64,000 nucleotides of DNA from Escherichia coli (GTDB taxonomy: Bacteria > Pseudomonadota > Gammaproteobacteria > Enterobacterales > Enterobacteriaceae): the NCBI RefSeq assembly GCF_002854065.1, contig NZ_CP024147.1. One strand, given 5' to 3'. The number at the start of each line of letters is the position of its first letter. The stretch's first letter is position 1. Of the stretch, positions 7,094 through 7,270 are shown one piece after another. The notes under the pieces were generated by a model. It worked only from the letters and a program-made list of their open reading frames with translations, was not told the DNA's origin and did not search any database. The position numbers and the translations under genes were made by a program.

Positions 7094-7153
7094 ATGCCAT
7101 TGACCGGGAGGTGTAGGCGATTCCAGACCACCCGGTTTGATTTATAAATGAAC

Positions 7154-7175
7154 AGTGCCCCAATTTTGGGGCACT
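7154..7175. terminator. Hairpin between convergent pgpA and the pentapeptide-repeat gene
   Basis: Inverted repeat AGTGCCCCA-attt-TGGGGCACT. Confidence 0.5.
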
Positions 7176-7270
7176 CTGTTAAAGTAAAACCCGACATCGC
7201 CGAATATACTATGCGGCGATATTTCAAGGTGTATCTTTGTCACTCATAATTCAATGACACTGAAATATCG

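Follow-up and report, generated by a model that had tools for sequence, protein, structure and literature searches.

Introduction

Intrinsic terminators consist of a GC-rich stem-loop followed by a U-rich tract, soon after a stop codon and, at convergent genes, between the two. The classic bidirectional form is a single symmetric hairpin with an A-tract and a U-tract. REP elements are palindromes to which protection of mRNA 3′ ends is often ascribed, and 3′UTR-derived sRNAs are a known class. Among the O-islands of O157:H7, OI-26 is reviewed as 1983 bp with a single ORF, espY3/z0521 (PMC8565820), and EspY3 has been characterised as an effector localised to the pedestal (PMC6313403). Publications on OI-26 describe the protein, and the hairpins that flank its gene are absent from their descriptions.

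Here we describe the pgpA-proximal border of OI-26 in the window, the 64,000-nt stretch of Escherichia coli DNA (contig NZ_CP024147.1) that was analysed. Both the island and the kind of element at its edge, ordinary terminator-type hairpins, are already known, and nothing unusual was found at the border. As in described intrinsic terminators, GC-rich stem-loops lie soon after a stop codon between convergent genes; the tracts that follow them are U-enriched but interrupted, and a role in termination is predicted from sequence. Where a classic bidirectional terminator has one symmetric hairpin, this locus has two hairpins facing each other across a shared AT-rich palindrome. The finding has little importance beyond annotation and opens no new question. 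It shows how a very small one-effector virulence islet is embedded in the core genome, and it helps to place the boundaries of OI-26 correctly and to engineer or delete espY3 while leaving pgpA expression intact.

The insert beside pgpA is OI-26

The + strand of the window carries ribD-ribH-nusB-thiL-pgpA, and beyond pgpA the − strand carries a 531-aa ORF (7271–8866), yajO (9097–10071) and dxs. The ORF is labelled ‘T3SS effector pentapeptide repeat protein EspY3’ in the RefSeq records of matching genomes, and the gene and its flanks, pgpA and yajO, are arranged as in OI-26 of O157:H7 (espY3/z0521/ECs0472), with 97.5% identity, although EspY3 has 531 aa in the window versus 523 aa in O157:H7. 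The first-pass annotation had placed a cluster of hairpins where an insert bearing a pentapeptide-repeat gene borders on pgpA; that insert is the known O-island OI-26, and the hairpins do lie at this edge (Table 1). Because pgpA and espY3 are convergent, their 3′ ends face each other across a spacer of 177 nt. GC content is about 55% in pgpA and 22–35% in espY3, with the hairpin block intermediate at 43–48%. When a 2.4-kb query was compared by megablast with 5426 complete E. coli genomes, the core flanks were matched in 5424 of them and the complete query in 931.

Table 1. Features at the pgpA–espY3 border, in window coordinates, with hairpin energies across nine aligned alleles.
Feature	Coordinates	Strand	Description	Role or basis	Energy across nine alleles (kcal/mol)
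pgpA	6578–7093	+	171-aa form, ending ...GIL-TAA	ORF list, RefSeq annotations, K-12 alignment	
OI-26	7090–9096		~2.0 kb, sole gene espY3; replaces the 53-nt REP-containing K-12 pgpA–yajO spacer	K-12 alignments	
H1	7103–7136	+	Interrupted stem-loop, −15.7 kcal/mol, 9 nt after the pgpA stop	Candidate pgpA intrinsic terminator	−15.7 to −19.5 (+ strand); stem never disrupted, two other changes in the loop
AT-rich near-palindrome TTGATTTATAAATGAAC	7137–7153	none	Between H1 and H2	Inverted-repeat search	
H2	7154–7175	−	Perfect GC-rich hairpin, −16.2 kcal/mol	Candidate espY3 intrinsic terminator	+ strand −16.2 to −9.3; − strand −16.2 to −13.2 to −10.4
H3	7190–7228 (core 7196–7220)	−	Extension specific to the − strand, −13.9 kcal/mol, then TTTTACTTTA		Core, − strand: −9.8, −7.9, −4.1, −0.7
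espY3	7271–8866	−	Pentapeptide-repeat T3SS effector; allele of 531 aa	ORF list, RefSeq, homologues	

The hairpins are island DNA in place of a REP-containing spacer

Alignment to K-12 W3110 showed that similarity ends within the end of pgpA, at window position 7089/7090, and restarts at the yajO stop codon (9097–9099), so that the island spans about 7090–9096. In K-12, pgpA ends in GGT ATT CTG TCG TAG and encodes 172 aa (...GILS-TAG); in the window it ends in GGT ATT CTT TAA, with a new TAA stop and a product of 171 aa. The K-12 pgpA–yajO spacer is 53 nt long (ttgtgcaccgatgcctgatgtgacgcttgtcacgtctcatcaggcctggactc) and is a dispersed REP-type palindrome that occupies a median of 8 places per genome and as many as 22. 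The three hairpins, H1, H2 and H3, are all missing from this K-12 spacer, and the possibility that they are core terminator elements unrelated to the insert does not hold.

A degenerate-pattern scan for the PgpA C-terminus, with one genome per species, returned seven loci, including those of E. whittamii, a second (cryptic) Escherichia lineage, two Citrobacter, Salmonella enterica subsp. diarizonae and Intestinirhabdus. REP-like palindromes lie directly 3′ of pgpA in the Escherichia, Citrobacter and Salmonella loci, and a different GC-rich stretch does so in Intestinirhabdus; H1–H3 were found in none of these outgroup-species loci. Since K-12 and the other Escherichia, Citrobacter and Salmonella loci carry a REP only, the ancestral spacer was REP-only and H1–H3 belong to the island; since related loci hold only REP-type palindromes at this place, the island had to bring new 3′ ends with it. 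The sole match of the scan that carried the hairpins was an E. coli-like contig of about 1 kb labelled as a Collinsella MAG. This deposit (JAIJJM010000965.1, Collinsella sp., 1045 bp) holds the E. coli pgpA end, the spacer with H1–H3 and the espY3 3′ end, and is almost certainly E. coli sequence that was binned with the Collinsella MAG in error.

Compared with the REP of K-12 and of the other Escherichia, Citrobacter and Salmonella loci, H1–H3 share the position in the pgpA 3′ flank, a palindromic nature and, presumably, a role as 3′-end structure for convergent transcripts. The two differ in that there is no sequence similarity and no meaningful alignment between them, and in that REP is dispersed whereas H1–H3 are single-copy: the 181-nt island border (7090–7270) occurs in 936 of the 5426 genomes, at a median of one place per genome. 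On this count we rejected both a dispersed-repeat reading of the border and membership of H1–H3 in the REP/BIME elements, the K-12 spacer having a median of 8 places.

In E. coli LR14, IS1A occupies the place of espY3, of the right border and of the final two yajO codons (from about window position 7238); this IS1-mediated deletion took espY3 and left the H1–H3 block beside pgpA. Deletions of the LR14 type account for some of the five genomes that have the border without the full island (936 versus 931).

Three hairpins and a shared palindrome

All three inverted repeats reported at 7100–7225 by the first-pass annotation were recovered there by an inverted-repeat search. The arms of H1 (7103–7112 and 7127–7136; ACCGGGAGGT and ACCACCCGGT) are 10 nt long and 90% complementary, with one mismatch, and the 14 nt between them form a partly paired loop. 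H2 has arms that are complementary at 10 of 10 positions (7154–7163 and 7166–7175; AGTGCCCCAA and TTGGGGCACT), in practice 9 bp closing a 4-nt loop, at −16.2 kcal/mol on both strands. The 11-nt arms of H3 (7196–7206 and 7210–7220) are 91% complementary, fold at −9.8 kcal/mol and contain a perfect 7-bp core, ATCGCCG/CGGCGAT. Two further elements had been missed in the first reading: the AT-rich palindrome at 7137–7153 and a perfect 10-nt inverted repeat, 7217–7226 with 7261–7270.

Folding of the whole cluster (7100–7225) gave −45.3 kcal/mol on the + strand, against −29.4 ± 3.6 for 200 dinucleotide shuffles (z −4.38); for the − strand the energy was −49.6 kcal/mol (z −5.96). On neither strand did any of the 200 shuffles fold as well, so the clustering of hairpins exceeds what composition would lead one to expect. 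A wider span, 7090–7275, gave z values of −3.8 (+) and −5.9 (−).

A small − strand ORF across the same interval (7227–7090, 45 aa, TTG start) was rejected as a gene: hardly any of its substitutions are synonymous, and five of nine alleles have lost its stop. The small-gene supplements for Sakai contained no match to the locus.

Tail composition and terminator scans

H1 begins just past the pgpA stop (7093) in sense orientation, and its + strand tail (TTGATTTATA, or TTTGATTTAT when counted from the last G–C pair) has 6 T in 10, interrupted. H2 lies 95 nt past the espY3 stop (7271) on the − strand, also in sense orientation, with a − strand tail, GTTCATTTAT, that likewise has 6 T in 10 and is interrupted, while its + strand tail, CTGTTAAAGT, has only 4 T in 10. 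The sequences flanking H2 are GATTTATAAATGAAC upstream and CTGTTAAAGTAAAAC downstream. Read rightward, the palindrome at 7137–7153 is the U-tract of H1; read leftward, it is the U-tract of H2.

A stricter terminator scan (loop of 3–8 nt) called H2 on the − strand only and did not call H1. A looser scan of the whole window, which accepted single hairpins no longer than 45 nt, with loops of up to about 14 nt, if their tails had 6 or more T in 10, recovered H1 on the + strand at −15.7 and H2 on the − strand at −16.2 kcal/mol. At ΔG ≤ −15 kcal/mol it returned 32 hits in 2 × 64 kb, of which 18 lay inside long ORFs, a background there of 0.18 per kb of strand. About 0.03 hits per strand would be expected in the 177-nt spacer, and one per strand was observed, each oriented with its upstream gene. 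The U-tracts of H1 and H2 are weaker than those of canonical terminators elsewhere in the window, for example at 30544 and 35356.

The first-pass annotation had proposed that the middle hairpin, H2, can serve as a bidirectional terminator. Its likeness to a terminator was borne out by the scan; its bidirectionality was not, the tails having 6 versus 4 T in 10 on the two strands and a substitution at 7169 acting on them unequally (see below).

Allele comparison

We aligned nine spacer alleles, including ones whose EspY3 is just 75–87% identical, and in some only 75–79%; these divergent-EspY3 alleles have the same locus, the same ~176-nt spacer and the 171-aa pgpA. Their low EspY3 identity stems from a hypervariable stretch at 8178–8800. 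In H1, the substitution 7109 A>T turns the internal A·A mismatch into a pair, at −19.5 kcal/mol. In H2, 7169 G>A makes a C·A mismatch in the + RNA (−9.3 kcal/mol) versus a G·U wobble in the − RNA (−13.2 kcal/mol), and the most divergent alleles (P0006/P0011) have lost two outer pairs (−10.4 kcal/mol) and kept the GCCCC/GGGGC core. Only the window/O157 allele has a perfect H3: elsewhere the pair 7199/7217 goes from G–C to G·U (on the − strand only) to U·U, after which one more pair is lost. The palindrome at 7137–7153 shows a single variant in the nine alleles (7150 G>A).

The 10-nt repeat 7217–7226/7261–7270 is not conserved across the alleles and breaks without compensation. We set aside the long-range pairings, both this repeat and the helix that closes the − strand minimum-energy fold, as unconserved, with changes that do not compensate one another.

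Informative substitutions are few across the nine alleles. Both of the strand-asymmetric transitions (7169 in H2 and 7199 in H3) favour pairing in the − RNA, which fits H2 and H3 lying in the espY3 transcript, with the weak statistics of n = 2 (chance 0.25). Identity in the spacer is 94–98%, against 94–97% in pgpA and 93–96% in yajO. Unusual conservation of the spacer, which its contrast with a 75%-identical protein had seemed to show, was rejected on this profile, its 2–6% divergence equalling that of pgpA and yajO; as the spacer is no more conserved than the core flanks, conservation alone is no proof of constraint on the hairpins.

At this one locus the EspY3 proteins encoded by different alleles are 75–100% identical and vary in length between 507 and 531 aa. 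Their divergence is concentrated in about 600 bp (8178–8800, the N-terminal half), where one 100-bp bin falls to 42% DNA identity, and the 3′ third of the gene and both flanks remain 90–100% identical. This pattern is suggestive of either mosaic recombination or selection for diversity in the N-terminal region of the effector. A 12-nt tandem repeat (CCGAAATCTATA-like, three copies) at 8256–8303 encodes DPNK/DFGI repeats and is probably the reason why EspY3 differs in length from strain to strain.

Two facing terminators as the preferred reading

We consider it probable, if well short of certain, that H1 is the intrinsic terminator of pgpA and H2 that of espY3, that the two share the AT-rich palindrome as U-tract, and that H3 is incidental. 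Termination at the H1 and H2 sites is itself predicted, from the anatomy of the hairpins, the strand asymmetry of their tails, their absence from K-12 and the outgroups and the allele pattern. H1 is most likely a replacement intrinsic terminator of pgpA, which explains it better than the first-pass suggestion of a border remnant or regulatory RNA. H2 is most likely the terminator of espY3 rather than a symmetric bidirectional one, and may at most be a weak back-up for pgpA read-through. H3 is probably an incidental, lineage-specific 3′UTR stem, because its energy decays across the alleles (from −9.8 to −0.7 kcal/mol); with its − strand extension it may be a first, weak and unconserved espY3 terminator in the O157-type allele.

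On this model, OI-26 displaced the ancestral REP-containing spacer and cut into the last pgpA codons, supplying a new pgpA stop and, 9 nt further on, H1 with UUUGAUUUAU, a combination that would terminate the thiL-pgpA transcript independently of Rho. From the opposite side, espY3 transcripts would first pass the weak, unconserved H3 and then end at H2, whose tail on that strand is GUUCAUUUAU. The single AT-rich palindrome flanked by H1 and H2 would give each its U-tract, and the predicted 3′ ends of the two RNAs would therefore nearly abut, falling within a few nucleotides of each other at about 7141–7150. Neither polymerase would need to enter the opposing gene.

Four other explanations were weighed, and in decreasing order of likelihood they are a bidirectional H2, mRNA stabilisers, a 3′UTR-derived sRNA and insertion relics. 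The first, in which H2 alone terminates both pgpA and espY3 and H1 and H3 are incidental, we regard as unlikely. H2 is the only perfect GC-rich stem in the cluster, is equally stable on both strands and sits between convergent genes; against this, it has no upstream A-tract on the + strand to go with its U-poor + tail, the stricter scan finds it on the − strand only, and 7169 G>A weakens the + RNA far more than the − RNA. Moreover, H1 lies upstream of it on the + strand, with a U-rich tail of its own and the best-preserved stem.

It is somewhat less likely still that the hairpins mainly protect the 3′ ends of the pgpA and espY3 mRNAs from 3′–5′ exonucleases, with transcription stopped by Rho or by collision. 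The imperfect U-tracts, the strong structure on both strands and the fact that the island takes the place of a REP fit such a role, but the U-enrichment of the tails is specific to the strand on which the upstream gene lies, which a pure stabiliser would not need. Stabilisation of mRNA is compatible with termination, and the two are not mutually exclusive.

The first-pass annotation had also raised a regulatory RNA structure for the hairpins other than H2, and in its fuller form this would be, for example, an sRNA cut from the 3′UTR of either mRNA, espY3 or pgpA, or else overlapping 3′ ends that pair as cis-antisense RNAs. Such a reading, which we judge improbable, draws on the very stable − strand fold (z −5.9) and on the predicted abutting of the convergent transcripts’ 3′ ends. 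It is opposed by the Rfam 15 covariance models, which gave no match at E ≤ 1 on either strand of 6900–9300, by a scan that found no promoter-like site inside 7094–7270, and by the decay of H3 and of the 7217/7261 repeat across the alleles. In sRNA terminators an interrupted U-tail makes a poor Hfq module, and the U-tails here are interrupted; the literature and supplements searched gave no report of an sRNA at this locus. About equally improbable is a more far-reaching proposal, that H1, the palindrome and H2 form a self-contained ‘double stop’ module travelling with the espY3 cassette, and/or that the espY3 3′UTR (H3–H2) is processed to an sRNA. If it were true, the module would re-terminate a truncated host gene and insulate pgpA and espY3 from each other, and its sRNA part would add a regulatory RNA in T3SS-expressing strains.

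Least likely, and to our minds hardly credible, is that the hairpins are relics of insertion, be they att sites, terminal inverted repeats or a mobile repeat of MITE or REP type, an origin that the first-pass annotation had allowed for the hairpins other than H2: they do sit exactly at the island border where the ancestral site had a REP, but no direct or inverted repeat links 7090–7270 with 8867–9096, no target-site duplication was found, the border is single-copy, the tRNA/tmRNA scan found no gene, and no phage match was obtained. The ORF list shows no integrase or transposase ORF within the island. An origin from a plasmid or phage was likewise rejected, the two ‘plasmid’ matches being 4.9-Mb records that are chromosomes by size.

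Other structures in the window

Apart from the facing terminators that we favour at the pgpA side, a terminator-like hairpin on the − strand at 8936–8950 (ATCGCTTTGAGCGAT, then TTTTGATAGT) sits 147 nt past the end of yajO and some 70 nt before the espY3 start codon, and may stop yajO read-through into espY3. In the right border of the island, downstream of the yajO stop, three arms occupy 9021–9064: A (GGTGATGGGA, 9021–9030), B (TCCCCATCATC, 9040–9050) and C (GACGATGGGGA, 9054–9064). B can pair with either A or C, giving two mutually exclusive hairpins with no U-tract, which could be a yajO 3′ structure or an insulator before the espY3 promoter. Outside the island, the nusB–thiL gap (5551–5593) contains a strong palindromic hairpin of −22 to −23 kcal/mol on either strand, with a T-rich + strand tail (TTTCTTTTTT), that was called on both strands in the terminator-like scan.
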